This document shows positions 8,306 through 53,190 of a stretch of 64,000 nucleotides of DNA, piece after piece; the first letter of the stretch is position 1, and each line of letters starts with the position of its first letter. Source of the stretch: a virus. Lineage: Duplodnaviria > Heunggongvirae > Uroviricota > Caudoviricetes. Made by a program: the position numbers and the translations under genes. The notes below the pieces were generated by a model. That model saw only the letters and a list, made by a program, of their open reading frames with translations, was not told the origin of the DNA and searched no databases. The DNA is taken from the IMG/VR virus record IMGVR_UViG_3300029533_000034, one strand, 5' to 3'.

Positions 8306-8453
8306 CAACAAATCACTTAAGGGGGAATGGGAAACCGTTCCTTCTTTTTCTGCCTGCAAGCAGACGATGTATACAGTTTATCTCAAAAATTAAAATATGA
8401 GGTTTTTCAGTATACGGTTGCAAAAATATTTTTAAAAAACTTTCTAAATTCCT

Positions 8454-8492
8454 TTGACAATTTTCCAGATGGCGCAATATGTATCATGTAAA
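8454..8492 (+). promoter_or_regulatory. recurring phage promoter, copy 2
   Basis: TTGACA...GGCGCAATATGTATCATG. Confidence 0.55.
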
Positions 8493-8631
8493 GGTCATAA
8501 ACCGAGCTGCCAGGGTTACCGGCTGGCAGAAATCCTTTCGATATTTGTTTACGCTTCCGGGGAAACCCGGAAAGGAGCAGGAGGACAGCAGCACATGCTG
8601 CTTCCGGGTCCGATTCCCGGATGCTTCTTTT
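8490..8631 (+). ncRNA. structured ~140-nt RNA, family copy 1 (5' hairpin, GNRA hairpin, variable hairpin, tRNA T-arm-like hairpin, U-tract)
   Basis: about 85% identical to 3 other copies, with compensatory changes in the stems. Confidence 0.55.
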
Positions 8632-8695
8632 ACAAGACCGCACGAAGCGGCACAAAAACCATATAAACATGACAAAGTACAGGGAGATTAAAAAA

Positions 8696-11069: not shown

Positions 11070-11108
11070 TTGACGATTTTTAAGATGACGCAATATGTGT
11101 ATTGTAAA
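11070..11108 (+). promoter_or_regulatory. recurring phage promoter, copy 3
   Basis: TTGACG...GACGCAATATGTGT. Confidence 0.5.
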
Positions 11109-11247
11109 GGTTATAAACCGAGCTGCCAGGGTTACCGGCTGGCAGAAATCCTTTCGATATTTGTTTACGCTTCCGGGTAATACCCGAAAGGGATAGTGAG
11201 GACACAGCGTAAGCTGTTCTGGGTTCGACTCCCGGATATCTCTTTTT
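11105..11247 (+). ncRNA. structured ~140-nt RNA, family copy 2 (3' hairpin is GGGTTCGACTCCC, i.e. a canonical tRNA T-arm)
   Basis: paralog of 8490, 33063, 36227. Confidence 0.55.
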
Positions 11248-11286
11248 TAAATGAAATTACAGAAAAAACAATATGGAGGGAAAAAG

Positions 11287-16112: not shown

Positions 16113-17117
16113 ATGAATACGTTGGAAAATTTAGAAATGGTATTGTTTGACTTTGATGATACGCTGTGCATACATAATCATCGCTCGGATGCTTATGAGG
16201 AAATGATGGAATATTTGTCATATATTCATTCAGGTGAAACATTTCCAAAATCATGGAATAAAGCAAAACCGAATTTGCAGTTAAAGAAATTCATGGATTA
16301 TCTTGCTTATAAGAATATCCCTATGGGTTTAATTAGCGGAGTGCGTGATTGTAAGACTGCGGAAAGAAAGATCAAATGGGTTAAAGAAAATTACGGTTAT
16401 TTACTGGAAAATTACTGTGTATCCAGTCAGGAACAGAAGATTATTGAACTTAAGGTCCTTGCAAAGGTTAACAGGCTTCATGAAAATCAGATTGCTATTA
16501 TTGATGATATGTATTCAAACCTTGAAAAAGCAGAAAGTGAGGGATTCATTGCTCTTTCCCCAATGCAGGTTGTTAATTTGTTTAATGAAACATCTGAACA
16601 AAAGTCTGCTGCAAGGATTATACCAGATTGCGATTTTCAACTGTATAATGAATTGAAAAATAAATACATATTCTGGGATATAGACAGCACTTTAGCGGCA
16701 TACAGGTTTAACGGGCATGTTTCAGATCCGGAAGGTACCGATAATGGTATGAGTTTAAAAGAAATCGAGGATGGGGTTTTTCTTAAGAGGAAGCCGTCCT
16801 GTCATATGCAGATGGTGTTGTCTACATGTGGCGCGAAGCAGAACATTGTGATGGGGCACTGCCAGGTGCAAAAAGAAATGGATGATAAACAGCTCTGGCT
16901 GGACAAGTATTATCCAAGTATCACAGATCGTTTACTTGTATCGGAAAACAAATCAAAAGCAGATACCATTTTGCAATACTGTAAGGATCATGATATTAGC
17001 TTGCAAGATGTAGTATTTGTAGACGATGTGATTTCATTTTTACGTGAAGCAGAGCGAAAAGGAATTGAATCATTTCATATCAGTAGTTTCCTGGATTGGG
17101 ATTTCGAAAGGAGGTAA
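16113..17117 (+). CDS. tandem HAD-superfamily hydrolase (two DxDxT motifs: DFDDT and DIDST)
   Basis: AGGAGG RBS; HAD motif I present twice. Confidence 0.6.
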   Translation: MNTLENLEMVLFDFDDTLCIHNHRSDAYEEMMEYLSYIHSGETFPKSWNKAKPNLQLKKFMDYLAYKNIPMGLISGVRDCKTAERKIKWVKENYGYLLENYCVSSQEQKIIELKVLAKVNRLHENQIAIIDDMYSNLEKAESEGFIALSPMQVVNLFNETSEQKSAARIIPDCDFQLYNELKNKYIFWDIDSTLAAYRFNGHVSDPEGTDNGMSLKEIEDGVFLKRKPSCHMQMVLSTCGAKQNIVMGHCQVQKEMDDKQLWLDKYYPSITDRLLVSENKSKADTILQYCKDHDISLQDVVFVDDVISFLREAERKGIESFHISSFLDWDFERR

Positions 17118-19012: not shown

Positions 19013-19149
19013 ATTTTTATCATTTCAGGATGTCACGATTATAACGAAGCAAACAGAGGAATGGAGATTGGCTTTGGTATTTCTCTTATCCTCGCCCAAA
19101 TTGTTGTTACGTTGACATATCTGGCTTTTGGAGGTGTGTTGTAATTTCT

Positions 19150-19222
19150 TGCGGAGCAGAGCAGAGGAGGCTCACCGGGCTCATGACCTGGGTGTCGGAG
19201 GTTCGATTCCTTCCTCCGCAAT
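19150..19222 (+). tRNA. tRNA-Met/Ile2 (anticodon CAT)
   Basis: cloverleaf: acceptor tgcggag/ctccgca, D-stem gagc/gctc, anticodon loop cuCAUga, T-loop TTCGATT. Confidence 0.65.
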
Positions 19223-31124: not shown

Positions 31125-32909
31125 ATGAGTGGTTTACCATTAGATCCTATTATTATTGCGGTTGTTGCTGTTGTTGTGATCCTTATCTGCATACTTGCCA
31201 GCGGGTATGTCAAAGCGCCAGCAGACAAGGCGTACATCATTTCCGGACTTAAGAAAGTGCCAAAGGTGTTAATTGGCCGGGCGGGAATTAAGATTCCTTT
31301 TCTGGAAAGAAAAGACGAACTTCTGTTGAAGCAGATCGGTATTGATATTAAAACCGGAGGTTATGTTCCAACGAAAGACTTCATTGGTGTTGATATTGAT
31401 GCGATTGCAAAAATCCGTCTGATTTCCATGCAGGATGTAGGAAAAGAGAAAACCTATACCAGAACAATCGTTGATGAGATTACTGACGGAAGCAATACAA
31501 AAGATGGGGATAAGGAATATTCAACTCATACAGAGGCCGTAACAATCAAGATTACAGAAGATATGGCGCGTGCGGCAATGCGAAATTTTCTTAATATGAA
31601 AGAATCCAACATTATCGAGGCATTACAGGATTCCTTACAGGGAAATATGCGCGAAATCGTTGGTACGCAGACTTTACGTGCTTTGTGCCAGGATCGTAAA
31701 TCCTTTGGTGATGAGGTCCAGAGTAAGGCACAGCCGGACATGAATGCCCTTGGTGTATGGATCGAGTCATGCAATATCCAGCGTATTGAGGACGAGCAGG
31801 ATCTGATCAATGCCCTTGGTATGGACAACATGGCTGCCATTCAGAAGAGTGCAAGTATTGCAAAGGCAGAGGCAGACAAAGACGTTGCAATTGCGCAAGC
31901 AAAGGCAGCAAGAGAAGCAAACGATGCAAAAGTTGCCGCTGACACGGAAATTGCTGAGAAGCAGAACGACCTTGCAATCAAGAAGGCAGAGTTGCAACAA
32001 CTTTCTGACACAAAGAAGGCGATTGCGGATGCTGCATATAAGATCCAGGAGCAGGAACAGCGTAAGGCGATTGAGACATCAAAGGTTAATGCAGATATTG
32101 CGGAGCAGGAAAGAACTGTTGAACTTCGAGAAAAGGAAGCACAGGTTGCAGAACAGACGCTTAATGCGACGGTAAAGAAGCAGGCGGATGCAGACAAGTA
32201 CAGCAGACAGCAGGCTGCAGAAGCAAATCTGATTGAAAAATCCCGTCAGGCCGATGCAGAAAAATATCAGCAGGAGAAAGAAGCAGAAATCCAGCAGATT
32301 AAGGCAGAGGCAGACAAGGAAGCGAAGAAGAAAGAAGCGGAAGGTATCCTTGCGGTCAAGAGAGCTGAAGCGGAAGGTATTGCCGCTGTAGGTAAGGCAG
32401 AAGCAGAAGCGATCGAGGCGAAGGGTCTTGCAGAGGCGCAGGCGATGGAGAAGAAAGCGGAAGCTTATTCGAAATACAATAAGGCTGCCGTTGCAGAAAT
32501 GATGATTAAAGTGCTTCCGGAGATTGCAGCCAAAGTTGCCGAGCCGCTTGGACAGATTGATAAGATTACAATCATCGGAGGCGGCGAGGGCGGCAATGGT
32601 GTCGATCAGGTTGCCGGAAATGTACCTGTTGTTATGGCAAAGGTCTTTGAAAGCGTTAAGGAAGCGACTGGAATTGATCTGACAAGCATTGTTAATGCTG
32701 AGTCTTACGATGCAAAGGTTAACCGCAATGTTAATTTGACCGGCATTAATGACATGGTGACAATTTCTGGTGGATCAAAGAGTGAAGCGGACGAAAATGG
32801 AACCGCAAATTCCGGCATTGATTCTGACTTTGCGGAAGAGAATGCAGAGACGATTCGTTCCGTGGCAGATAACTCCAATCAGGAGCAGGCTGACGGTAAT
32901 CTGATTTAA
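31125..32909 (+). CDS. flotillin-like SPFH/band-7 protein with long A/E/K/Q coiled-coil tail
   Basis: N-terminal TM segment, SPFH core, then a ~300-aa coiled-coil, as in YqiK/FloT. Confidence 0.7.
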   Translation: MSGLPLDPIIIAVVAVVVILICILASGYVKAPADKAYIISGLKKVPKVLIGRAGIKIPFLERKDELLLKQIGIDIKTGGYVPTKDFIGVDIDAIAKIRLISMQDVGKEKTYTRTIVDEITDGSNTKDGDKEYSTHTEAVTIKITEDMARAAMRNFLNMKESNIIEALQDSLQGNMREIVGTQTLRALCQDRKSFGDEVQSKAQPDMNALGVWIESCNIQRIEDEQDLINALGMDNMAAIQKSASIAKAEADKDVAIAQAKAAREANDAKVAADTEIAEKQNDLAIKKAELQQLSDTKKAIADAAYKIQEQEQRKAIETSKVNADIAEQERTVELREKEAQVAEQTLNATVKKQADADKYSRQQAAEANLIEKSRQADAEKYQQEKEAEIQQIKAEADKEAKKKEAEGILAVKRAEAEGIAAVGKAEAEAIEAKGLAEAQAMEKKAEAYSKYNKAAVAEMMIKVLPEIAAKVAEPLGQIDKITIIGGGEGGNGVDQVAGNVPVVMAKVFESVKEATGIDLTSIVNAESYDAKVNRNVNLTGINDMVTISGGSKSEADENGTANSGIDSDFAEENAETIRSVADNSNQEQADGNLI

Positions 32910-32970: not shown

Positions 32971-33027
32971 ATTGAAAAGGATCAAGCAGGACACGGTGTA
33001 AGTTTTTTAAAAGCTCTCTAAGCTTCT

Positions 33028-33066
33028 TTGACATTTCAGGAGATGGCGCAAGATGTATCATGTAAA
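33028..33066 (+). promoter_or_regulatory. recurring phage promoter, copy 6
   Basis: TTGACA...GGCGCAAGATGTATCATG. Confidence 0.5.
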
Positions 33067-33205
33067 GACCATAAACCGGGCTGCCAGGTTACCGGCTGGC
33101 AGAAAACTCTTTCGATATTTGTTTACGCTTCCGGGTAATACCCGGAAGGGATAGTTGGTTCGCAGCGTAAGCTGTTCCGGGTCCCATTCCCAGATATCCC
33201 TTTTT
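33063..33205 (+). ncRNA. structured ~140-nt RNA, family copy 3
   Basis: paralog; loop and stem substitutions preserve the hairpins. Confidence 0.55.
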
Positions 33206-33275
33206 CAAATGAAATTACAGAAAAGTCTGGCGTCGTCCACACGATTCGTGCCCGTGAGCAAAGAGAACAAAGGAG

Positions 33276-33343
33276 CACACCCGGAAGGAATCGAACCCTC
33301 GTTGGCGGTTTTGGAGACCACTTTCTGTCCATCAGACAGGTGT
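33276..33343 (-). tRNA. tRNA-Trp (CCA)
   Basis: minus-strand cloverleaf; T-loop TTCGATT; anticodon loop cuCCAaa. Confidence 0.6.
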
Positions 33344-33349
33344 ATATAG

Positions 33350-33439
33350 CGCAGACACCGGGGTTCGAACCCGGACAGCGGTTGTGCCGCATGCCACATT
33401 AGCAGTGTGGAGGGGTACCAGTTACCTTTATATGTCTGC
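33350..33439 (-). tRNA. tRNA-Ser (GCT), long variable arm
   Basis: acceptor gcagaca/tgtctgc; anticodon loop cuGCUaa; T-loop TTCGAAC. Confidence 0.65.
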
Positions 33440-33444
33440 ATAAG

Positions 33445-33516
33445 AGGCATCGGAGGGAATCGAACCCTCACCTTCCGGGTTGCAACCGGACGCCTTAGCC
33501 GTTTGGCTACGATGCC
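33445..33516 (-). tRNA. tRNA-Cys (GCA)
   Basis: acceptor ggcatcg/cgatgcc; anticodon loop uuGCAac. Confidence 0.7.
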
Positions 33517-33547
33517 ATATATGGGTTCCCCTGATAAGGGAGGAGAG

Positions 33548-33631
33548 CGCTGTGCCATGGATTCGAACCTTGACATTCTTTCGGGATGGCGGTTTTTAAG
33601 ACCGCTGCTTTCCCGGTTGAGCCAGTACAGC
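33548..33631 (-). tRNA. tRNA-Leu (TAA), long variable arm, two stem mismatches
   Basis: anticodon stem gcggt/accgc, loop cuUAAaa; T-loop TTCGAAT. Confidence 0.5.
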
Positions 33632-33875
33632 AAAAATAAAGGCACACACCTCTCAATTGAAAGATGTATGCCCCGTTTTCTTAAGTATTTCCTATATTTT
33701 CCCAGAAATTCCCCAGCAATAATCACATTTCTTTCAATTTGAGACGGTATTTACGAGCACGATAACTGCACCAGCTGCATGACTGCGGCTGACTGATACT
33801 TCTCTGTGGACACTGTCTCATTTCTGTTGTCATCATTGTTTTTCCTTCCTTTCCTTGAATTTTTTCAATATTAAG

Positions 33876-33949
33876 TGTGCCTGGTGGGACTTGAACCCGA
33901 CGACGCCACGATTAAAAGTCGCGTGCTCTGCCAACTGAGCTACAGGCAC
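33876..33949 (-). tRNA. tRNA-Lys (TTT)
   Basis: acceptor gtgcctg/caggcac; D-arm TAGCTCAGTTGGCAGAGC; anticodon loop cuUUUaa. Confidence 0.7.
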
Positions 33950-33954
33950 ATGAG

Positions 33955-34026
33955 CGGATCAGGAGGGAATCGAACCCTCGTTTTCCGGTAGACAGCCGGG
34001 TGTAATAGCCTTTATACTACAGATCC
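33955..34026 (-). tRNA. tRNA with GTC anticodon (Asp?); unusual T at position 37
   Basis: canonical T-arm GAGGGTTCGATTCCCTC; anticodon loop cuGUCua. Confidence 0.5.
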
Positions 34027-34030
34027 ATAA

Positions 34031-34103
34031 AGCTCCCGTCCGGCTTCGAACCGGAAACCTTCTGATTACAAATCAGATGCACTGCCAGTTGTGCTACAGG
34101 AGC
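34031..34103 (-). tRNA. tRNA-Thr (TGT)
   Basis: acceptor gctcctg/cgggagc; anticodon stem tctga/tcaga, loop uuUGUaa. Confidence 0.6.
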
Positions 34104-34108
34104 AGGAA

Positions 34109-34181
34109 CACTTCCGACGGGTGCTGACCCCGCTATCTCCGCCGTGACAGGGCGGTGACTCTGCTGTTTGTCCTCGGAAGT
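34109..34181 (-). tRNA. non-canonical tRNA-like gene with a perfect Asp anticodon arm (ccgcc-cuGUCac-ggcgg) but T-loop GTCAGCA instead of TTCGA
   Basis: acceptor acttccg/cggaagt perfect 7 bp; D-stem 3 bp. Confidence 0.4.
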
Positions 34182-34185
34182 ATAG

Positions 34186-34267
34186 TGCGCTGGGGAGGAC
34201 TCGAACCTCCGGTGTTTCTTTGTGGCTGATTTACAGTCAGCTGTCTTCGCCGCTGGACTACCAACGC
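34186..34267 (-). tRNA. tRNA-Tyr (GTA), long variable arm
   Basis: anticodon stem gctga/tcagc, loop cuGUAaa; T-loop TTCGAGT. Confidence 0.65.
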
Positions 34268-34272
34268 ATGAG

Positions 34273-34344
34273 CTGATCCGGAGGGACTCGAACCCTCAAC
34301 GCCCCGGTTAACAGCCGGGTGCTCTACCATTGAGCTACGGATCA
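34273..34344 (-). tRNA. tRNA-Asn (GTT)
   Basis: acceptor tgatccg/cggatca; D-arm TAGCTCAATGGTAGAGC; anticodon loop cuGUUaa. Confidence 0.7.
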
Positions 34345-34345
34345 G

Positions 34346-34417
34346 AGCATGTGACGGGTCTCGAACCCGCCCGTCCTGCTTGGAAGGCAGGTGTGCCGCC
34401 AACAACACTTCACATGC
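34346..34417 (-). tRNA. tRNA-Gly (TCC)
   Basis: acceptor gcatgtg/cacatgc; anticodon stem cctgc/gcagg, loop cuUCCaa. Confidence 0.6.
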
Positions 34418-34984
34418 ATACGGATAAAAGAAGTGCCTGTTTTCTCTTATCCATTCAGTTTTTTACCGCATCGCTGCGGAGTGGACAGGAGTGGTAATGA
34501 TCCACCCTGTAAGGATTTTCAGTCCCTCGCTAATCCATCTCAGCTACCTGTCCATGGCTTTTCTGCAATAAAAAAGCCGCATCAAGAAATTTTCCTTCTT
34601 TCTGCGGTCATCTGCGTTTTGCAATATTTCGGTTTTAAGTGCCTGGTTTAAAATCGAAATCGACCGCGGGAAGGTGTATCATAATAGTTCTGTCCCCATG
34701 TTTTCCCGGATTTTGAGCATGAGAAACTAAACATATTGCTGAAATCGCCGTATGTTCTACAATCATTATTAAAATTTTTACTGCTCATCATCTTTAACAT
34801 GGTTTTCTTTTCCTTTCATTTTAATTAATGCTGGATAAACAAAAAGCCCGTCACTTAACTCAAAGCTACACATTCAAATAGCTCTGAGTTAAAAGACAGG
34901 CACTTCTTTTATCTCATGAGCCTATCATATCATACTGATCGTGAAGTGTCAACAGGAAATTTGAAAAAATAAAACAAATAAAAA

Positions 34985-35012
34985 TCTCCGCCAAATAAGA
35001 CGGAGATTTGAA
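34985..35012. terminator. bidirectional terminator hairpin (aatctccg...cggagatt)
   Basis: 8-bp inverted repeat flanked by A and T runs; sits at the 3' end of the minus-strand gene. Confidence 0.45.
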
Positions 35013-35014
35013 AA

Positions 35015-35635
35015 TTAACATATTAATTCGTAGTCGTACAGATCGAGCGGCGTTTTGTTTCCGCTGGACCACTCAAACTCTTCGTTGTCCCAAATGCTGC
35101 GGGCGTTGTTCAGATTGATCTCATCCGTCAGTACCTTTTCTTCGATATTAATGAACCGTTCCAAAGATTCTTTGAAGCGGTTGATGACTTCCTCGGGATT
35201 CTTTGAATGCCAGCTGTATTCGTCGAAAAACCTTCCACTGGCGGTAATTGTTAATTCCTCGCCGTTATCCGACAATCCAGACAATTCAAATGTAGCGTCT
35301 TCCTCGGAAATATCGCTATAATATTCGCCAGGTTTATTGGTATCGTTGATTTTGTTCCCAAGTCCTTCCGCTTTTTCCATCAGGTCATAAATTTCCTCTG
35401 GAATCGTAAGGTAATCTTCCGGATAGTATTCCACGGTTGGCTTGATTTCTTCGATCGGAAGCTTTTCAACGAAATCGTCTCCTTTGAAAATAGCAAAAGA
35501 GTTCATACCTCTTGCGCTGATCTCAACTTTCCCGCATTTGCATGGGAATATTTTTAAAAGTCTTCTATCTCGAGTGTCATAAGCTACTGAAAAAATGCCG
35601 CATTCTTTGCATTTAAAATTTCTTTGTGTTTTCAT
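35015..35635 (-). CDS. hypothetical protein with N-terminal zinc ribbon (CKECG...CKCG); the only minus-strand protein gene
   Basis: internal ATG (MKTQRNF) with GAAGGGAGAAAAA RBS; longer ORF start overlaps the plus-strand promoter. Confidence 0.55.
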   Translation of the reverse strand: MKTQRNFKCKECGIFSVAYDTRDRRLLKIFPCKCGKVEISARGMNSFAIFKGDDFVEKLPIEEIKPTVEYYPEDYLTIPEEIYDLMEKAEGLGNKINDTNKPGEYYSDISEEDATFELSGLSDNGEELTITASGRFFDEYSWHSKNPEEVINRFKESLERFINIEEKVLTDEINLNNARSIWDNEEFEWSSGNKTPLDLYDYELIC

Positions 35636-35872: not shown

Positions 35873-36106
35873 ATGGTCCGGACAGAACTGTCTTTTCGTA
35901 TGGATGCAGAGGCGGAAACTCCGGTGGTCAGATTTGGAGAGAAAATACTGGTTTCCGATGGTTCAAAAGCGGTCGAGATGACTGTGATCAAGATCAACTG
36001 GGTTAATCTTCGGGATATGCTCTGCAATGTATCCGCGGATTATCATGAGAATGAGATGCCGCGATTTGAGAAAGAAAAGAAGTTCAATGTAGTTGAGAGA
36101 AAATAG
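35873..36106 (+). CDS. small hypothetical protein whose stop codon abuts a solitary CRISPR repeat
   Basis: AGAGGAAAAATG RBS. Confidence 0.45.
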   Translation: MVRTELSFRMDAEAETPVVRFGEKILVSDGSKAVEMTVIKINWVNLRDMLCNVSADYHENEMPRFEKEKKFNVVERK

Positions 36107-36136
36107 TTGTACCCTATGCGGTGCATGGGTTGAAAC
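36106..36136 (+). CRISPR. solitary CRISPR repeat unit (GTTGTACCCTATGCGGTGCATGGGTTGAAAC)
   Basis: single repeat with an intact hairpin and no adjacent spacer-repeat units. Confidence 0.5.
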
Positions 36137-36190
36137 TAAAGTCACATTTAACATGAAACAAAATTTTTTCAAAAACTTTCAAAATTCCCT

Positions 36191-36229
36191 TGACGAATCC
36201 CCAGATGGCGCAATATGTATCATGTAAAG
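36191..36229 (+). promoter_or_regulatory. recurring phage promoter, copy 8
   Basis: TTGACG...GGCGCAATATGTATCATG. Confidence 0.55.
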
Positions 36230-36365
36230 GTCATAAACCGAGCTGCCAGGGTTACCGGCTGGCAGAAATCCTTTCGATATTTGTTTACGCTTCCGGGGAA
36301 ACCCGGAAGGGATAGTGAGGACGCAGTGTAAGCTGTTCCGGGTCCGATTCCCGGATATCCCTTTT
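36227..36365 (+). ncRNA. structured ~140-nt RNA, family copy 4
   Basis: paralog of 8490, 11105, 33063. Confidence 0.55.
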
Positions 36366-36645
36366 AACTGCCGCAGGTGGTCTTCTCAAATTCAGCTGTC
36401 TGCGGCCTGTGGGATTTCCCACTGAACCAAAATAACGATAACCGCCAGAATTACAGCAGCGTGCGTTGGCGTGAGAACTATCGGCGCACAGGGATTACTC
36501 CTTTCATATTTATCTATCACACCTTTTCGTACATCGTATGGAGAGGCTGTGGAACAGCAGGTGCGTAGCCACGGGCTATTCCGGGATCGTTCCCCAGATG
36601 TTCCATTTTTAAAACATTAAAACAAATTACAGGAGGAAAATAGCG

Positions 36646-37368
36646 ATGGAAAAAGAAGTGGTATATGTCGCAGAACTGGATTCCGATGTTGACGATGTCG
36701 TTGCAGCAAATTACTTATATAATGAAGGGGTCTTAAAATGCGTAGTATGTGACCCATATCCAAGGACACCGGAGGGATTGGCACGAAAGGGAAAGCTGGA
36801 AGCGCTTGGCATCGATGTGGTTAAGAAAATGCCACCGGTTGCAAAATATGTGTTTGTTGGCGGCGCACTTACGGCTGTTGCTGGCTATATCCGGATGCAC
36901 CATGTCGACTGGCTGGTAATGAACGGAGGCTTTGTTGGAGCAAATATTGCGACCCTTGAACTGGATAAGTTCAAGGGGAAGAACACTGTCCGTACCTTCA
37001 ATTTCAACTGCGATGTTGTGGCTGCAGATACGGTTTTGAAAACTGATGAGAAGCATATTTCTCATATTGTTCTTGTTGGAAAGAACGTCTGCCACGATGT
37101 CCGGAATACGAGGAATGGTATCTGGAGTGGCGAGAAATACAAGAAATTGTTTGATGAGTACCGCGTTAAAGATGAGAAGCGTCAACATGACCTACTTGCC
37201 TGCCATGAGGGACTTGCATTCCTGCGGGGAACCAGTAAGATCTGCGAGTATGAGACAGTAAGGCCGTACAATACAGGTTTGAATGGCAAGCTGACACAGT
37301 GGGGCAGCACAAAAACTATGGAAACACCATATCGCGAAGTGCTTGCCGCTGTTGGCTATCGGGATTAA
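36646..37368 (+). CDS. nucleoside hydrolase (IunH/RihA-like) family protein
   Basis: N-terminal Asp cluster ELDSDVDDVVA, plus MNGGF...GAN...TFNFNCDVVAA...VL...HD, colinear with the IU-nucleoside hydrolase motifs DxDxxxDD, MGG..GN..EFN..DPEAA. Confidence 0.5.
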   Translation: MEKEVVYVAELDSDVDDVVAANYLYNEGVLKCVVCDPYPRTPEGLARKGKLEALGIDVVKKMPPVAKYVFVGGALTAVAGYIRMHHVDWLVMNGGFVGANIATLELDKFKGKNTVRTFNFNCDVVAADTVLKTDEKHISHIVLVGKNVCHDVRNTRNGIWSGEKYKKLFDEYRVKDEKRQHDLLACHEGLAFLRGTSKICEYETVRPYNTGLNGKLTQWGSTKTMETPYREVLAAVGYRD

Positions 37369-37370
37369 AA

Positions 37371-37679
37371 GTTACACTCCGCGAGGGGTGTATGGGTTGA
37401 AATTGAATAAATAATGCATCATAAGATATTCCAAATTGTTGCACCCCGCGAGGGGTGCAGGGATTGAAATAAAAGAACCTCTTCGATTCCCGAACACCCT
37501 TGTCTAGGTTGCACCTCGTAAGAGGTGTATGGGTTGAAATCCGGATCTGCTCTGCGGTTAGCATGGCACCACGTTGTTGCACCCTGCGAAGGGTGTATGG
37601 GTTGAAATGTGTTACCATTCCATCTTCTCCACGTCTAACTCTAGTTGCCCCCCCCCGCGCGAGGGGCGCATGGGTTGAA
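37371..37679 (+). CRISPR. CRISPR mini-array 2: 5 degenerate repeats, 4 spacers (34-37 nt); starts 2 nt after the stop codon of the hydrolase gene
   Basis: read directly from the sequence. Confidence 0.85.
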
Positions 37680-37789
37680 ATTGATTTACAGCCGGGGCAA
37701 GAAAATGTACGCTACAAAGTCCTTTCGCACCTGTCTTTTCTGTGGTATACTAAAAGAATAAAAGATATATCCAAGGAGAAGGTTAAAGG

Positions 37790-38662
37790 ATGAGAAAAAG
37801 CATAAAAGATTTTGGAAATTTTGTGAGAAAAGATAATTACCCGGGACTTCCGGAAGAACTGAAAGAGTTTAACTATTTTTTGAGTGATGGGGAAACTGGT
37901 CATGTAATCATGGCTGTGCCGGAACACAAGTTGGAGAAGGCGGAAGAAAAAGGGGATAATCTGGATGACTATGAATGTCCGGTTCCGGTGGCATATGTTC
38001 TTAAGAATGGGTACCGGCTGTATAAGGACCATGTAATATGTCAGGTTCCGTACGATGAGAAACTGGGGATACGTATTCCGGAAGAATATTACGAACCATT
38101 GATCATTTCTACAGATGCCGGGAAAGCAGAGGAGCCGACATCCGGAGAGTTCCCTTATGAGAAAGGAAAATGCTATCCGGAATTTACAAACCATGCAGAA
38201 GCTGTAGTTGCGGACATCGTTAAGGATTACGTGCAGATTCGCGTATTTTTCAAAAATCCTACAGAAAACGAGATTGCACAGTTTTCTCCGGATTCCAGAC
38301 TGGAAATCCGTTTTACAGAGATGGATGGGACCGGTCTGTTTACCGTCAAAGCTGGCAATTTGTCATGGATGGACGCACCATACCATGCGAAACTTGCAAA
38401 AGATTTGTCAGGATTCAATTTTACAGCAAAAGGTGAAATCCCACTGTATCTCCTCCTGATCGACTCGTCGATTGGTGAAGTTAAAGCGGTTCGAAATGTC
38501 CATCTGTCAGAAGAGTTTTCGGGAAAGTTGAGAAATCTGGTGGATCGTCAGATTAACTCTGATTTTGATAGGAAGAAATATGCTGATATCCTGTCCAATA
38601 TTTACCTTCTATTCGGTTCAGATGAGCTGGCGGATGCCAGTACCATTAAGTGCCAGTGGTAG
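37790..38662 (+). CDS. hypothetical 290-aa protein sandwiched between CRISPR arrays 2 and 3
   Basis: AAGGAGAAGG RBS. Confidence 0.6.
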   Translation: MRKSIKDFGNFVRKDNYPGLPEELKEFNYFLSDGETGHVIMAVPEHKLEKAEEKGDNLDDYECPVPVAYVLKNGYRLYKDHVICQVPYDEKLGIRIPEEYYEPLIISTDAGKAEEPTSGEFPYEKGKCYPEFTNHAEAVVADIVKDYVQIRVFFKNPTENEIAQFSPDSRLEIRFTEMDGTGLFTVKAGNLSWMDAPYHAKLAKDLSGFNFTAKGEIPLYLLLIDSSIGEVKAVRNVHLSEEFSGKLRNLVDRQINSDFDRKKYADILSNIYLLFGSDELADASTIKCQW

Positions 38663-38682
38663 GTAAGAAGATATACTTTACT

Positions 38683-38903
38683 GTTGCGCCCCATTGGGTG
38701 CATGGGTTGAAATCTGAAACCGAATAGATTGGATAGGACAGGCTGAGGTTGCACCCCGCGAGGGGCGTATGGGTTGAAATAGTCCGGACAATCAAAAACG
38801 ATATCGAAGAGCTGTCGTTGCACCCTGCGAGGGGTGTATGGGTTGAAATTGCAGAAAGATCAGGATTGGAAGGTTGCATCCTATGGGATGCATGGATTGA
38901 AAC
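38683..38903 (+). CRISPR. CRISPR mini-array 3: 4 degenerate repeats, 3 spacers (34, 36 and an unusually short 23 nt)
   Basis: read directly from the sequence. Confidence 0.8.
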
Positions 38904-38939
38904 GAACATATTTGTTATTATTTATTATTGAGATCAGAA

Positions 38940-38978
38940 AGGTCTGCAGTCAGTTAATCTGGCTGCAGATTTTTTTTG
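38940..38978 (+). terminator. rho-independent terminator (tctgcagtcag...ctggctgcaga + T8)
   Basis: inverted repeat plus T-run. Confidence 0.5.
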
Positions 38979-39006
38979 CAATTTTTCAAAAATTTTCCAA
39001 AATCTT

Positions 39007-39045
39007 TTGACGATTTTTTAAAAGGCGCAATATACATATTGAAGG
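39007..39045 (+). promoter_or_regulatory. recurring phage promoter, copy 9, directly upstream of cas5c
   Basis: TTGACG...GGCGCAATATACAT. Confidence 0.55.
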
Positions 39046-39086
39046 GATAAACAGGGGCTTGCCGCTGTTGATTACCAGAGTTAAAA

Positions 39087-39114
39087 GTTGTGCCCCTATG
39101 GGGTGCATGGGTAA
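39087..39114 (+). repeat. degenerate CRISPR-repeat-like element in the cas5c 5' UTR (GTTGTGCCCCTATGGGGTGCATGGGTAA)
   Basis: the 5' 24 nt match the repeat consensus; the 3' handle has diverged. Confidence 0.35.
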
Positions 39115-39126
39115 TAAGAGAAAGGA

Positions 39127-39801
39127 ATGGAAAAAGAAAAAATGGGAGTGAAACTAAAAGTCTGGGGAGATTATGCATTGTTCACCAGACCGGAACTGAA
39201 AACAGAACGGTATACCTATGACGTGATGACTCCGTCGGCAGCTAGGGGGATTCTGGAATCCATCTACTGGCATCCGGGATTACGGTGGTACGTAGATAAA
39301 ATCCACGTATTAAATCCGATTGCCACTACAAGCGTAAGAAGGAATGAACTTCTCAGCAAGATACCGAAATCAAATATGTTACAGGCATATAACGGCGGCG
39401 ATGTCAAGCTGTATAATTCGTCAAGAGACGATATTATCCAGAGGGCATCCGTGATCCTCCGTGATGTCAGCTACGTGATTGAAGCACATTTTGAAATGAC
39501 GGACAAGGCAAGCCCGACGGACAGCCCGGCGAAGTTTATCAGCATCTTTAATAACAGGGCAAGAAAAGGGGCGTGCTATTCGATGCCGTATTTCGGGGTA
39601 AGGGAATTTCCGGCACACTTTGAACTCTATGAAGGTGATGAAAAGATCCCATCCTGTTATGAAAGACTTCCGGACAGGGATTTCGGGCTGATGCTTTATG
39701 ACCTGGATTATTCCTGCGGAAGAGATATCCAGCCAATGTATTACCATGCAGTTATGAAAAATGGCATCATTGATGTCGGGAACAGTGAGGTGTTTCGATG
39801 A
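39127..39801 (+). CDS. cas5: type I-C Cas5c (Cas5d) crRNA-processing subunit
   Basis: N-terminal region VWGDYALFTRPELKTERYTYDVMTPSAARGILESIYWHP matches the Cas5d family signature. Confidence 0.9.
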   Translation: MEKEKMGVKLKVWGDYALFTRPELKTERYTYDVMTPSAARGILESIYWHPGLRWYVDKIHVLNPIATTSVRRNELLSKIPKSNMLQAYNGGDVKLYNSSRDDIIQRASVILRDVSYVIEAHFEMTDKASPTDSPAKFISIFNNRARKGACYSMPYFGVREFPAHFELYEGDEKIPSCYERLPDRDFGLMLYDLDYSCGRDIQPMYYHAVMKNGIIDVGNSEVFR

Positions 39802-41537
39802 TCCTGCAGTCACTTGTAAAATTATATGAAACGCTTGCAGACCAGGGGAAAGTATCCCGTCCCGGCTGGTGCAATGCAAAGGTATCCTATGCAGTGGTGT
39901 TAAACCACGATGGGATAATCCAGGATATTGTTTCCGTAAAGCAGGAGATACAGAGAGGGAAAAAAACTGTTGAAATTCCGACAGTTATGCAGGTTCCAGA
40001 GATGGTCACCCGGGGTAACAACATTGCTTCCGGCTTTCTCTGCGAAAATGCAAAGTATCTCTTTGGAATTGATGAGAAGATGAACCCGCGTACGCTTGAC
40101 TGTTTTAAAGCAGCAAGGAAGAAACATCTTGATATCCTTGATGTCGTGGATGAGTCGGCAGCACAGGCAGTGTGCCGCTTTTTCCGTTCATGGGATCCGG
40201 AACAGGCACTGGATCACCCGGCAGTTGCGAAGCTTGCGGAAAAGTTTTATAAAGGCGGGAACCTCGTATTTGAGGTAGACGGCAAATATGTGCATGACAA
40301 TGAGGCCGTGCGCAGAGCATGGCTGGATTACAGCAGCGTACCATATGAAATGGTAACAGGAAGATGCCTGGTTACCGGGAAGAAAGCAGAGATTGCCCGC
40401 ACACATGGGAAGGTCAAAGGAGTGCCGGGAACACAGTCATCCGGTGCGGCGCTTGTATCCTTTAACGGCGCGTCCCTTGAGTCTTATGAGAAAACACAAA
40501 GTTATAACGCGCCGATCAGCACCTATGCGGCGTATGCATATGTGACAGCATTAAATTACCTGCTTTCCACGGACGGGTACCACAGCAAGGTAGGAGATTT
40601 CATGGTGGTCTTCTGGACGGATTCCGGGGATGTGGATGATGTAAGCAGACTGCGGAAGATGATGGGGAGCGCCAATGAAAAAGATCATGTCCTTGCAGAT
40701 CCGGATGAAAAACTGTACGTGCTCTGTCTTGCACCGAATGCCGGCAGAATTGCAGTCCGGTTCTTCTATGAAGATGCCATCGGAGTGATCTGGAAGAACC
40801 TGTTGGAACATGCCCGCCGGATGATGATCATAAAGCCGGCGTTTGAGGATCAGGAATTCATCAATATCTGGCAGATGCTTATGGAGACGGTAAACCAGAA
40901 CCTTACAGACAGGACCCCGGTTCCGCATATGGCTGCGATGACGTTACAGTCGGTCATTTCGGATACCAAGTATCCGCAGAGCCTGTATGCAGGAGTGCTG
41001 TCCCGCATCCGTGCCGAGCACAAAGGCGTTACTTACAGAAAAGCAGCGGTCATCAAGGCTTTTTTAATAAAGAACTATAAATGGGAGGAAGGGAAAAATA
41101 TGGAAGTATTAAACGAAGACTGCAGAGACCGTGCGTATATCCTCGGCAGGCTGTTTGCGGTAATGGAAAAGACACAGAAGGAAGCAATTGATAACATCAA
41201 CCAGACGATCTGTGACAAGTTTTACAATTCCGCATGCACAACGCCAGGATCGGTATTTCCGGTGCTGATCAGACTGTCCAACAGTCATTTAAGCAAGCTG
41301 AAACGCACAAAGCCGGGCAGAGGATATTATTTTGCGGCTAAGATCCAAAGTTTGATGGGTCTGATTCCGGTTACAGCGGATGATCCGGGGTTCCCGAAGC
41401 GTTTCACGTATGAGGATCAGGGCAAATTCGCACTTGGTTATTACCACCAGATGCAGGCAGAATATACAAGCAATAAGTCAAAAGACAGCGATCCTGAAAG
41501 CAACCAGACAAATGCAGAGAAGATGGAGGAAAACTAA
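39798..41537 (+). CDS. cas8c: type I-C Cas8c (Csd1) large subunit
   Basis: N-terminus MILQSLVKLYETLADQGKVSRPGWCNAKVSYAVVL matches Csd1; ATGA start/stop overlap with cas5. Confidence 0.9.
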   Translation: MILQSLVKLYETLADQGKVSRPGWCNAKVSYAVVLNHDGIIQDIVSVKQEIQRGKKTVEIPTVMQVPEMVTRGNNIASGFLCENAKYLFGIDEKMNPRTLDCFKAARKKHLDILDVVDESAAQAVCRFFRSWDPEQALDHPAVAKLAEKFYKGGNLVFEVDGKYVHDNEAVRRAWLDYSSVPYEMVTGRCLVTGKKAEIARTHGKVKGVPGTQSSGAALVSFNGASLESYEKTQSYNAPISTYAAYAYVTALNYLLSTDGYHSKVGDFMVVFWTDSGDVDDVSRLRKMMGSANEKDHVLADPDEKLYVLCLAPNAGRIAVRFFYEDAIGVIWKNLLEHARRMMIIKPAFEDQEFINIWQMLMETVNQNLTDRTPVPHMAAMTLQSVISDTKYPQSLYAGVLSRIRAEHKGVTYRKAAVIKAFLIKNYKWEEGKNMEVLNEDCRDRAYILGRLFAVMEKTQKEAIDNINQTICDKFYNSACTTPGSVFPVLIRLSNSHLSKLKRTKPGRGYYFAAKIQSLMGLIPVTADDPGFPKRFTYEDQGKFALGYYHQMQAEYTSNKSKDSDPESNQTNAEKMEEN

Positions 41538-41538
41538 T

Positions 41539-42450
41539 ATGAGCAAACCGATTCAGAACAAATATGATTTTGTAGTATTATTTGACGTAGAGAATGGAAA
41601 CCCAAACGGCGATCCGGATGCTGCAAACATGCCAAGGGTTGATCCAGAGACCGGCATCGGTCTTGTGACAGACGCCTGCTTAAAGCGAAAGATCCGCAAC
41701 TATGTGGAAACAGCAAAGGAAGATGCAGACGGTTTCAAGATCTACATCAAAGAGGGTATTCCGTTGAACCGCAGCGATCTTAAGGCAATCGAAAACCTTG
41801 GTGTTGATGTTGATGACAGTAAGAAGGCACTTGAGGATGTCAAGAAACTGAAAAAGACCGATGAGAACGTAGACCTTAAGCTCCGTGACTATATGTGCAG
41901 CAACTACTACGATATCCGTACGTTCGGTGCTGTTATGACCACTTTTACAAAGGCGGCATTAAACTGTGGGCAGGTACGCGGCCCGGTACAGATTGGCTTT
42001 GCAAAAAGTATTGATCCTGTTTTCAGCCAGGATATTACTGTAACCAGAGTTGCGATCACAACCGAAAAGGATGCCGAAAAGAAGAACACCGAGATGGGAA
42101 GAAAGAGCATTATCCCTTATGGTCTCTACCGCGTGGAAGGATATGTTTCTGCCAACCTTGCCCGCAAGACCACCGGTTTTTCCGAAGATGATCTGGATCT
42201 TCTCTGGAAAGCCATCATCAATATGTTTGAAAATGACCATTCTGCAGCACGCGGGAAGATGGCGGTACGTGAGCTGATTGTATTCAGGCATGACAGCGAA
42301 CTCGGCAACTGTCCTTCCTACAAGCTGTTTGAAGCAGTTGATGTCAAGAAGAACGATGATGTCGAGTTTCCTCGCAAATACTCTGATTACACCGTAAAGA
42401 TCCATGAGGATGCAATCCCGGGTGGTGTGACGATGACGCGCATGATTTAA
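41539..42450 (+). CDS. cas7: type I-C Cas7c (Csd2) backbone subunit
   Basis: N-terminus MSKPIQNKYDFVVLFDVENGNPNGDPDA is the Csd2 signature; the ORF-track start at 41380 is an in-frame upstream extension. Confidence 0.9.
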   Translation: MSKPIQNKYDFVVLFDVENGNPNGDPDAANMPRVDPETGIGLVTDACLKRKIRNYVETAKEDADGFKIYIKEGIPLNRSDLKAIENLGVDVDDSKKALEDVKKLKKTDENVDLKLRDYMCSNYYDIRTFGAVMTTFTKAALNCGQVRGPVQIGFAKSIDPVFSQDITVTRVAITTEKDAEKKNTEMGRKSIIPYGLYRVEGYVSANLARKTTGFSEDDLDLLWKAIINMFENDHSAARGKMAVRELIVFRHDSELGNCPSYKLFEAVDVKKNDDVEFPRKYSDYTVKIHEDAIPGGVTMTRMI

Positions 42451-53088: not shown

Positions 53089-53190
53089 GTGGCGGTAGCT
53101 CAGTCTGGTAGTAGCACTCCTGTATGGCATCGTAAATGCGTGTAAGGAACCATGCAGGTGTTGTCGGAGGTTCAAATCTTTCCCGCCACA
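53089..53190 (+). tRNA. atypical ~102-nt tRNA-like gene: canonical acceptor, D- and T-arms, but a 9-bp stem with 22-nt loop in place of the anticodon/variable region
   Basis: acceptor gtggcgg/ccgccac; D-arm TAGCTCAGTCTGGTAG; T-loop TTCAAAT; no standard 7-nt anticodon loop identified. Confidence 0.4.

Follow-up and report, generated by a model that had tools for sequence, protein, structure and literature searches.

A conserved tRNA-Asp look-alike without elbow nucleotides in the inverted tRNA array of a human-gut mobile element

The stretch of DNA analysed here, referred to below as the window, is a 64,000-nucleotide sequence filed as a virus of the Caudoviricetes (IMG/VR record IMGVR_UViG_3300029533_000034). 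Its minus strand carries an operon of tRNA genes, and within this operon lies a gene at 34109-34182, hereafter Asp*, which has the length, the stems and the anticodon arm of a tRNA-Asp and lacks the nucleotides of the tRNA elbow. A second gene with the same GTC anticodon, tRNA-Asp(U37/A38), shows the reverse situation, with a canonical body and an anomalous anticodon loop. Both were found in related arrays of three lineages, so that the element carries two conserved Asp-anticodon genes with reciprocal peculiarities. Our preferred reading, which we hold tentatively, is that Asp* is a selected mimic of tRNA-Asp.

Results

Anatomy of Asp*

Genes for tRNA were called with ARAGORN (default, -ps90 and -ps80 settings) and with the Rfam model RF00005 (gathering score 29 bits). 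Asp* was left uncalled by ARAGORN at all three settings, and RF00005 gave no match to it, either at E<=10 when 83 nt were searched alone or at E<=5 in a search of 3.9 kb. The preliminary description of this DNA had singled out the gene as something other than a standard tRNA, which these searches bear out. The anatomy it had proposed, with a 7-bp acceptor stem, the anticodon arm CCGCC/CTGTCAC/GGCGG and the T-loop GTCAGCA, was recovered as well:

34109-34182, minus strand: Asp*, tRNA-Asp-derived cloverleaf, read from sequence and fold
Acceptor stem: ACTTCCG / CGGAAGT, with discriminator G (G73)
Positions 8-9: AG; position 26: A
D-stem: GAC / GTC (3 bp); D-loop AAACAGCAGA, without GG
Anticodon arm: CCGCC-CTGTCAC-GGCGG; variable region AGATA
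T-stem: GCGGG / CCCGT; T-loop GTCAGCA

The stems of Asp* thus measure 7 bp (acceptor), 5 bp (anticodon) and 5 bp (T), and its 7-nt anticodon loop has U33 and a purine at position 37. The elbow nucleotides U8, G18G19, T54 and A58 are absent, with A8, G54 and G58 found instead of U8, T54 and A58. As a baseline we used 398 bacterial tRNAs from 120 unrelated loci; of their 397 T-loops, 377 have T54/A58, 20 have A/A, and none has G/G as Asp* does. It had been stated that the T-loop lacks the whole T54-psi55-C56 core. This holds for T54, but U55 and C56 are present in the window, since the register with a 5-bp T-stem reads G54 U55 C56 A57 G58 C59 A60. In lineage B (defined below) the T-loop of Asp* is reduced to 6 nt, GCAGCA, and U55 is missing.

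The minimum free energy of the Asp* fold is -29.2 kcal/mol (z = -2.8), and the 20 base pairs proposed for it are formed in 99% of the cells of the alignment of related arrays. All 17 nucleotides of its anticodon arm are identical to those of the tRNA-Asp of Blautia, Dorea, Agathobacter, Ruminococcus, Sporofaciens and many other bacteria. The identity set of the E. coli aspartyl-tRNA synthetase consists of G73, G10, G34-U35-C36, C38 and G2-C71. Asp* has six of these seven elements, the exception being G2-C71, replaced by C2-G71.

A covariance model built on Asp* detected no further copy in the window or in distant relatives. Two origins were considered and rejected. Asp* is not a recent duplicate of the U37 Asp gene, as the two share 55% identity, which is background; nor is it the remnant of a phage attachment site, because its T-arm is not tRNA-like and could not rebuild a host tRNA gene.

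Asp* varies as little as the best-conserved tRNAs

Conservation was assessed on 26 complete aligned arrays belonging to three lineages. Lineage A comprises the window and contigs L001-L010, L024, L026 and L029. Lineage B (L017-L023, L025, L027, L028 and L030-L033) was found through a neighbouring 206-aa protein, 89% identical, and lineage C (L155-L158) through a 67%-identical homologue of a 50-aa leader open reading frame (ORF). In lineage C the array has a different gene neighbourhood; it is common to two different backbones.

The number of variable sites per nucleotide was 0 for tRNA-Gly, 0.055 for Asn, and 0.068 for both Asp* and Thr. It rose to 0.10 for Ser(GCT), 0.15 for Asp(U37), 0.16 for Cys, 0.21 for Phe and Lys and 0.22 for Tyr, and reached 0.28 for the gene annotated as Leu(TAA), 0.33 for the 243-nt gap that divides the array and 0.63 for a 30-nt spacer. 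Asp* (5 variable sites of 74) differs significantly from the gap (80 of 243; Fisher test, p = 2e-6) and from the Leu(TAA) gene (24 of 85; p = 4e-4); its difference from the confident tRNAs taken together (81 of 596; p = 0.14) is not significant. Between lineages A and B, Asp* shows 2 differences over 74 nt, compared with 13.8% at the four-fold degenerate sites of the flotillin-like gene and 22% in the gap.

The changes fall mostly in loops. The variable sites include a G/A change in the D-loop, the deletion of a U in the T-loop, and a G-C pair of the T-stem turned into G.U. A pattern scan of metagenomes yielded 12 further loci, which contain only the same two Asp* haplotypes. One of the explanations offered earlier for Asp*, that it is a decaying duplicate, finds no support in these data: its variability equals that of Thr and is close to that of Asn, far from the 0.33 of the gap and the 0.28 of Leu(TAA), and it shows no paralogy to Asp(U37). 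On balance, Asp* appears to behave as a constrained RNA.

A second Asp gene with a canonical body and an anomalous anticodon loop

The preliminary description had noticed two GTC genes with complementary oddities, and both are indeed there. The second one is:

33954-34026, minus strand: tRNA-Asp(GTC), U37/A38; ARAGORN, Rfam 55.8 bits

Its body is canonical (55.8 bits in the window, 62.3 in lineage B), apart from a T.T mismatch in the acceptor stem and a C.A at the top of the anticodon stem. The anticodon loop is CTGTCTA, which confirms the T37 reported earlier and adds A38; this CUGUCUA loop is invariant in lineages A, B and C. A purine occupies position 37 in 397 of the 398 baseline tRNAs, and U37 occurs once. 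Compared with the widespread bacterial tRNA-Asp arm, its own arm differs at 9 of 17 positions. It has all the E. coli identity elements listed above except C38, which is A38 here.

This gene is 72% identical to Asn (34272-34344) and to Cys (33444-33516), for a background of 50-60%; it shares its anticodon stem with Asn and nearly the same T-arm with Asn and Cys. This hints that it may have arisen inside the array, by duplication followed by a change of anticodon.

Content of the array

ARAGORN found 11 tRNA genes in the window, 10 of which form a minus-strand run at 33275-34553, in the transcription order Phe(GAA), Gly(TCC), Asn(GTT), Tyr(GTA), Thr(TGT), Asp(GTC), Lys(TTT), Leu(TAA), Cys(GCA), Trp(CCA). 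RF00005 concurs with these calls across the array. The inverted tRNA operon with non-canonical members is thus real. Besides the two Asp genes, the following members were recorded, all on the minus strand:

34481-34553: tRNA-Phe(GAA); ARAGORN, Rfam 44.9 bits; overlooked in the preliminary description
34345-34417: tRNA-Gly(TCC); ARAGORN, Rfam 49 bits
34272-34344: tRNA-Asn(GTT), with a U1-A72 pair; ARAGORN, Rfam 70.6 bits
34185-34267: tRNA-Tyr(GTA); ARAGORN, Rfam 55.1 bits
34031-34103: tRNA-Thr(TGT); ARAGORN, Rfam 63.8 bits
33875-33949: tRNA-Lys(TTT); ARAGORN, Rfam 56 bits
33547-33631: annotated Leu(TAA), best read as a decayed tRNA-Ser(UGA); ARAGORN, Rfam 38.7 bits
33444-33516: tRNA-Cys(GCA); ARAGORN, Rfam 69.2 bits
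33349-33439: tRNA-Ser(GCT), with a displaced or weak D-arm; ARAGORN at -ps90 only, Rfam 25.5 bits
33275-33345: tRNA-Trp(CCA), low-scoring; ARAGORN, Rfam 31.4 bits
33231-33272: remnant of a tRNA-Gln(TTG), from alignment to the intact Gln(TTG) of lineages B and C

The list of eleven genes given earlier is mostly upheld by ARAGORN and RF00005; it omitted Phe, and two of its members stand apart, Ser(GCT) being below threshold and Asp* uncalled. Likewise, the block had been placed at 33276-34417. Location and strand are right, but the unit extends to 34553, because tRNA-Phe(GAA) is a confident further member upstream. The operon therefore contains ten tool-recognised tRNAs, a conserved but unusual Ser(GCT), two decaying genes, and Asp*. 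Ser(GCT) scores below the gathering threshold, yet is conserved (0.10 variable sites per nt). For tRNA-Trp, depending on the register, there are acceptor-stem mismatches or no 8-9 linker, and ARAGORN gives it 71 nt here and 69 nt in relatives. None of the tRNA genes of the array encodes CCA.

Two more members have features that are kept in relatives. The T-loop of tRNA-Phe, ATCATTA, gives A54/U58, a combination seen in 0 of the 397 baseline T-loops. The variable region of tRNA-Tyr has 13 nt and cannot form the stem that is usual for bacterial tRNA-Tyr.

Codon usage was computed over 10,007 codons of the element. GGA makes up 39% of Gly codons, ACA 43% of Thr codons and AAA 60% of Lys codons; AGA, for which relatives have an Arg(TCT) gene, represents 28% of Arg codons, and Asp codons are 6.5% of the total. 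As the U34 anticodons mostly match the commonest codons of the element, the array as a whole fits with ordinary tRNA supplementation.

Lineages B and C each have 13 ARAGORN tRNAs, in the order Phe-Gly-Asn-Tyr-[Asp*]-Thr-Asp-Lys-gap-Ser(TGA)-Cys-[Ser GCT]-Arg(TCT)-Gln(CTG)-Trp-Gln(TTG). Gene order is kept across the 26 arrays (10 to 13 ARAGORN tRNAs), which have, as expected of a tRNA operon on a mobile element, many same-strand tRNA genes, short spacers and an order conserved among relatives. The segment comprising tRNA-Gly and the sequence directly upstream (34345-34445) is 100% identical in 26 of 26 arrays of the three lineages, while the promoter spacer, the leader and tRNA-Phe of the same arrays differ greatly. 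Such an invariant segment amid divergent neighbours suggests a recent exchange of array segments between elements.

Two tRNA genes reported on the plus strand, outside the array, were also found. One is tRNA-Met(CAT), called by ARAGORN at 19149-19222 (+); the other is a tRNA-like gene, matched by RF00005 at 53089-53190 (+) with 33.6 bits. In the latter, the acceptor stem, the T-arm (GTTCAAATC) and the D-arm, which includes GG, are canonical, and a 36-nt insertion occupies the position of the anticodon loop; ARAGORN run with introns makes it a Met(CAT) with a 27-nt "intron". In this respect it is the opposite of Asp*, its elbow being intact and its anticodon arm abnormal.

Decaying and lost members

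The gene called Leu(TAA) has, as had been noted, two stem mismatches, one in the acceptor stem and one in the T-stem. It does not qualify as a tRNA-Leu: its variable arm is long, and position 73 is G, where bacterial tRNA-Leu requires A73. At the same position an intact tRNA-Ser(TGA) with perfect stems is found in lineages B and C, and in one contig of lineage A (L003). Relative to this gene, the window allele has the anticodon change G35>A, an acceptor A.C, a T-stem A.A and a weakened variable-arm stem, and it scores 38.7 bits instead of 53.1, a loss of about 14 bits. In two other contigs, L007 and L029, there is a 1-nt deletion in the anticodon loop. The variability of the gene (0.28) is near that of the non-tRNA gap (0.33). 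It is best read as a dying tRNA-Ser(UGA). The TAA allele was the commonest in the window's lineage (9 of the 11 sequences first compared); if still serylated, it would misread UUA, which accounts for 21% of Leu codons.

Compared with lineages B and C, the Gln(TTG) stump retains the portion from the anticodon loop to the 3' end, with a mutated T-arm, and its 5' half is deleted. Arg(TCT) and Gln(CTG), present in B and C, have been cleanly lost from the window's lineage. Disrupted stems and a near-neutral rate, the features of pseudogenes, are found in Leu(TAA) and in the Gln stump, and not in Asp*.

The carrier is a widespread gut element

Just upstream of the array, the window encodes a flotillin-like protein (31125-32909). 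Many metagenomes of the human gut contain it with no change in sequence, on contigs as long as 356 kb (277 index blocks), and one contig of lineage B reaches 361 kb. The array is therefore carried by a widespread human-gut mobile element with contigs of up to about 361 kb, such as ERZ28752698 contig_15260 (361 kb). The scan of the window's ORFs gave matches to methylases, a helicase, an LPD1-domain protein, HNH and type I-C Cas proteins; genes for cas5, cas8c and cas7 of type I-C, CRISPR-like repeats, methylases, HNH, TnpB and an LPD1-domain protein are found in the window and relatives. Relatives encode PcfJ-like genes, and one that has the same array on a related backbone encodes a TraG-like ATPase. 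None of the approximately 30 ORFs scanned in this 64-kb window, of an element reaching at least 361 kb, matched a capsid, tail or terminase gene. Given the lack of a virion or packaging gene among these ORFs and the TraG-like ATPase of the relative, we call the carrier a huge mobile element, which may be a phage or a plasmid. No counterpart of the window was found in IMG/VR with two protein-based scans and two DNA patterns, and megablast and blastn searches against 50,697 phage records (INPHARED) returned generic tRNA similarity only, with nothing over Asp*.

The CRISPR-like repeats are of type I-C style (GTTGCACCCCGCGAGGGGTGTATGGGTTGAAAT). They start at 37371, 37438, 37508, 37576 and 37649 (spacing of about 68 nt), then at 38748 and 38817, and shorter related repeats start at 36106, 38683, 38873 and 39088 (regions 36106-39117 and 39127-42450). 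They flank an ORF at 37790-38662 and lie ahead of cas5, cas8c and cas7; the element's own spacers fall within 37371-38857.

Promoter, leader and hairpins of the operon

Several candidate expression signals and small ORFs were recorded upstream of the array and in its gap, all on the minus strand:

34924-34952: sigma-70-type promoter, TTGACA-17 nt-TGn-TATGAT; consensus scan, 11 of 12 matches plus extended -10
34893-34913: 5' arm of a 21-nt inverted repeat; repeat search, 95% complementary to 34423-34443
34837-34901: leader hairpin GCCTGTC...GACGGGC around a second stem, then TTTTTGTTT (U-run); read from sequence
34648-34800: ORF50, leader ORF with a GAAAGGAAAAG ribosome-binding site; gene call in related contigs
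34567-34607: terminator-like hairpin CCGCA...TGCGG, then CTTTTTTATT; read from sequence, 14 nt upstream of tRNA-Phe
34423-34443: 3' arm of the 21-nt inverted repeat, just upstream of tRNA-Gly; repeat search
33723-33836: ORF37, open frame with a strong upstream GGAAAGGAAGG; ORF scan
33639-33674: intrinsic-terminator-like hairpin (16 pairs), then TATTTTT; terminator scan
35015-35635: ORF206, located upstream of the operon, the one minus-strand protein gene of appreciable size, with its own terminator at 34982-35009

The sequence at 34924-34952 is the putative promoter of the tRNA operon. It is located after the terminator of the 206-aa gene, with a predicted start near 34917; the -35 box, the spacing and a -10 box reading TAT[G/T]AT recur in all three lineages, where neighbouring and spacer bases differ. 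With this conserved consensus and the terminator-like hairpins, the operon is predicted to have signals of its own.

The leader hairpin gives weak matches to hairpin-type Rfam families at 34835-34912 and no call in the terminator scan; it is possibly an attenuator or a processing structure. Lineages A and B show no change in either arm of the 21-nt inverted repeat, and lineage C almost none; in the transcript the arms would enclose ORF50, the terminator-like hairpin and tRNA-Phe. They could pair over a distance in the RNA, as a site of the RNase III type, or could mark the boundary of a separately acquired Phe module. The hairpin at 34567-34607 is kept in all lineages; it was not reported by the terminator scan because its loop is too long. 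The hairpin at 33639-33674, which ends 7 nt before the next tRNA, divides the array in two after Lys and ORF37; in lineages B and C its stem persists although bases have changed.

The protein of ORF50 is identical in lineage B and has a 67%-identical, 51-aa homologue at the same place in lineage C, with a ratio of nonsynonymous to synonymous substitution rates (dN/dS) of 0.64. In two relatives, ORF51 and tRNA-Phe occur without the remaining array (L154, 6250-7600; L159, 2170-3520), so that the Phe module and the Gly-to-Gln array look separable. In both, repeated ACAAATGTTTTTTTGGTA motifs and a TnsA-like gene directly follow the ORF51/tRNA-Phe module, as if a Tn7-like element had inserted immediately beyond the 3' end of the tRNA-Phe gene.

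As had been proposed, the 245-nt gap contains a 37-codon ORF with a strong ribosome-binding site. Its status as a conserved gene is not supported: although all three lineages have the frame open, its dN/dS ranges from 0.56 to 1.75 and the stop codon moves. We consider it a putative ORF with no clear coding constraint.

ORF206 has an N-terminal CxxC...CxC motif. Its homologues in more distant elements (57-64% identity; L011-L016) are also lone reversed genes, with no adjacent tRNAs. The protein matched no Pfam or PHROG family and no fold of the Protein Data Bank at E<=0.001, and its AlphaFold model is weak (pLDDT, the predicted local distance difference test score, of 60.7). On these grounds, a tRNA-related role for ORF206 was dropped.

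Searches of the window and of the vicinity of the array for tRNA-repair, queuosine or nuclease-inhibitor genes gave only a weak PHROG match to polynucleotide kinases. It concerns a 334-aa protein encoded at 16113-17117 (+), about 2 kb upstream of tRNA-Met (E = 1.4e-4), which also has weak Pfam matches to haloacid dehalogenase-type phosphatases; it might conceivably be an RNA-end-healing enzyme.

Repeats on the plus strand

A repeat of about 200 nt, described earlier as copies of a non-coding RNA (ncRNA), is present in four plus-strand copies (8429-8635, 11083-11266, 33000-33205 and 36162-36365) that are 79-86% identical. A promoter-like motif, TTGAC..GGCGCAATAT, precedes every copy, a hairpin and T-run close it, and two of the four bracket the whole minus-strand module. 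No Rfam family was found for it, the best match being Y RNA (E = 0.044). The third copy adjoins the array and points at it, as stated before; however, it has its own hairpin and T-run near 33205, about 70 nt before Trp. That it is read antisense into the end of the operon by design finds no support in lineage B, where the copy is separated from the array by three ORFs and two more tRNAs, and Gln(TTG) also lies in between. Repeat and array are adjacent because the window's lineage underwent a deletion, the one that cut Gln(TTG) short as well; this is not a conserved design.

Discussion

Given its intact stems, its low variability and its Asp-type anticodon arm, Asp* is most likely a selected tRNA-Asp mimic, that is, a tRNA-Asp-derived gene under purifying selection, non-canonical and probably chargeable. 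This is quite possibly correct, although we stop short of real confidence in it. Asp* would be transcribed with the operon and excised from the precursor like its neighbours; we propose this because RNase P, RNase Z and the CCA-adding enzyme act on the acceptor/T-stem helix. It would then be given CCA, and the aspartyl-tRNA synthetase, together with other enzymes that read the anticodon arm and the discriminator, may still recognise it. Asp* would thus serve as a non-canonical and probably chargeable mimic, operating alongside tRNA-Asp(U37/A38), which has the reciprocal defect of a normal body with an invariant odd loop.

Several observations weigh against this proposal. The minimum free energy fold of Asp* does not contain the D-stem, the anticodon stem being extended instead. 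No covariation was seen: 0 of the 20 pairs changed on both sides, so that the cloverleaf is compatible with the data and not proven. Asp* barely varies, hence double changes are not available and this test is uninformative. In one contig (L156) a D-stem pair is broken, and in another (L020) the anticodon GTC has become GCC. When the lowest estimate of neutral divergence is used (7%, at 57 four-fold sites of ORF206), the comparison of lineages A and B by itself is not significant (p = 0.10). The arrays are mosaic, Gly and its flank being identical everywhere, and lineage C combining an Asp* equal to that of lineage A with a gap resembling that of B; the low divergence of a 74-nt gene could then partly reflect recent exchange and not selection. 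What is called a "host-type" anticodon arm is an arm common to many phyla. Finally, the absence of the elbow, and the 6-nt T-loop of lineage B, are expected to weaken function on the ribosome.

Some of these points lead to a second explanation, namely that Asp* is an inert relic. On this view an old tRNA-Asp gene has been stripped of its elbow and would at best keep Tyr and Thr apart, and it would vary little because it hitch-hikes with constrained neighbours and because elements have recently exchanged segments of the array. The array is certainly losing genes: Ser(UGA) is in decay, Gln(TTG) is truncated, and the window's lineage has neither Arg nor Gln(CTG). Its genealogy is mosaic, and one 63-nt non-tRNA spacer also has a low variability (0.13). 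Asp* itself is not recognised by any tRNA model, shows no covariation and has an anticodon variant. Yet its defects are not random: all stems are paired, the 17-nt arm is untouched, and only elbow positions are non-canonical. The true relics of the array, Leu(TAA) and the Gln stump, have stem mismatches and deletions, and variability is 0.28 in Leu(TAA) against 0.068 in Asp*. As both flanking genes, Tyr (0.22) and Asp(U37) (0.15), are more variable than Asp*, a simple local lack of divergence is unlikely. We therefore regard the relic as unlikely overall, while taking it seriously.

A third explanation, by analogy with known phage tRNAs, would make Asp* a decoy that soaks up a host anticodon nuclease or another arm-binding enzyme, with the U37/A38 tRNA-Asp as the cleavage-resistant working copy. 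The design of the two genes is reciprocal, a host-type arm on an odd body facing a canonical body with an arm that is different at 9 of 17 positions and has U37, and both are conserved in three lineages. There are precedents for evasion by substitutions in the anticodon stem-loop, as the tRNA-Lys of phage T5 escapes PARIS (PMC11464382) and mycobacteriophage tRNAs escape anticodon-arm nucleases (PMC10264068) in this way. However, no defence nuclease specific for tRNA-Asp was identified for any candidate host; no decoy tRNA was described in the literature searched; and no tRNA-repair or nuclease-inhibitor gene was recognised near the array. Moreover, Asp* keeps an exact 7-bp acceptor stem, G73 and tRNA dimensions, which a decoy would not need. 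We find a decoy improbable. The chance is similarly slim that the two Asp genes form a two-part counter-defence module, in which an elbow-less decoy with exactly the anticodon arm of the host's tRNA-Asp would be combined with a U37/A38 replacement invisible to a host nuclease or modifying enzyme directed at tRNA-Asp.

Very improbable, lastly, is that the additional functions once suggested for the array are real, i.e. a working tRNA-Leu, a coding ORF37 and antisense control by the third ncRNA copy: the TAA allele is common, ORF37 is open with a conserved ribosome-binding site in three lineages and the repeat at 33000-33205 is directed towards the array, but that allele has G73, broken acceptor, T and variable stems and a score 14 bits below the Ser(TGA) allele, and would misread UUA if serylated, ORF37 has the dN/dS and the shifting stop codon reported above, and the repeat ends before Trp in the window and is set apart by three ORFs in lineage B.

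Arrays of tRNA genes with deviant and decaying members are already well known on large phages. The present one resembles those of large phages and mobile elements (T4, T5, mycobacteriophages of cluster C1, huge phages) in its head-to-tail, same-strand genes with spacers of 0-5 nt, its own predicted promoter, its anticodons fitted to frequent codons, and the gain, loss and decay of genes between close relatives. It is unlike them in its carrier, an undescribed gut element without a match in INPHARED or in the IMG/VR scans, and in its presence on two backbones.

The mimic that we favour can be compared with other unusual RNAs. The tRNA cluster of T4 encodes small stable non-tRNA RNAs, species 1 and 2 (rnaC/rnaD), whose function is unknown; they are probably cut out by the enzymes that mature the tRNAs, and are longer and not copies of the anticodon arm of a specific tRNA. 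Asp* is likewise embedded in a tRNA operon, but has the exact length of a tRNA and the identity set of tRNA-Asp. The non-proteinogenic tRNA-Gly of staphylococci and the elbow-poor mitochondrial tRNAs lack G18G19 or a canonical T-loop, are still charged and have special uses. Asp*, too, has retained its determinants in the acceptor and the anticodon; it has no known link to an aminoacyl-tRNA-dependent transferase or to a specialised ribosome. Like tRNA pseudogenes, it is missed by tRNA finders and resides in an array with decaying genes, but its stems are intact and its rate is that of the best-conserved tRNAs. A last likeness is to nuclease-resistant phage tRNAs (T5 tRNA-Lys against AriB of PARIS, mycobacteriophage tRNAs against VapC-type tRNases), which have an odd anticodon stem-loop at near-invariant positions; here the deviating positions are U37, A38 and a different stem in a tRNA-Asp. 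The published resistant tRNAs are single working tRNAs, while we find a variant tRNA together with an elbow-less look-alike (PMC11464382, PMC10264068).

For the annotation of such elements, the array has a practical consequence: since tRNA finders miss Asp* and Ser(GCT) and label a dying tRNA-Ser as Leu, tRNA inventories of gut elements can err both ways. The array shows decaying tRNA genes beside a preserved and highly deviant tRNA-like gene. What seems worth following is the conserved pair formed by the elbow-less tRNA-Asp look-alike and the U37/A38 tRNA-Asp, on an element that is common in human-gut metagenomes. If Asp* is inert, this is an ordinary tRNA array. If the decoy module were true, it would give bacterial mobile elements their first described tRNA decoy. 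And if Asp* and the U37/A38 tRNA-Asp work as a pair, this would broaden the idea that the tRNAs of mobile elements serve in part to survive the host's attack on tRNA.

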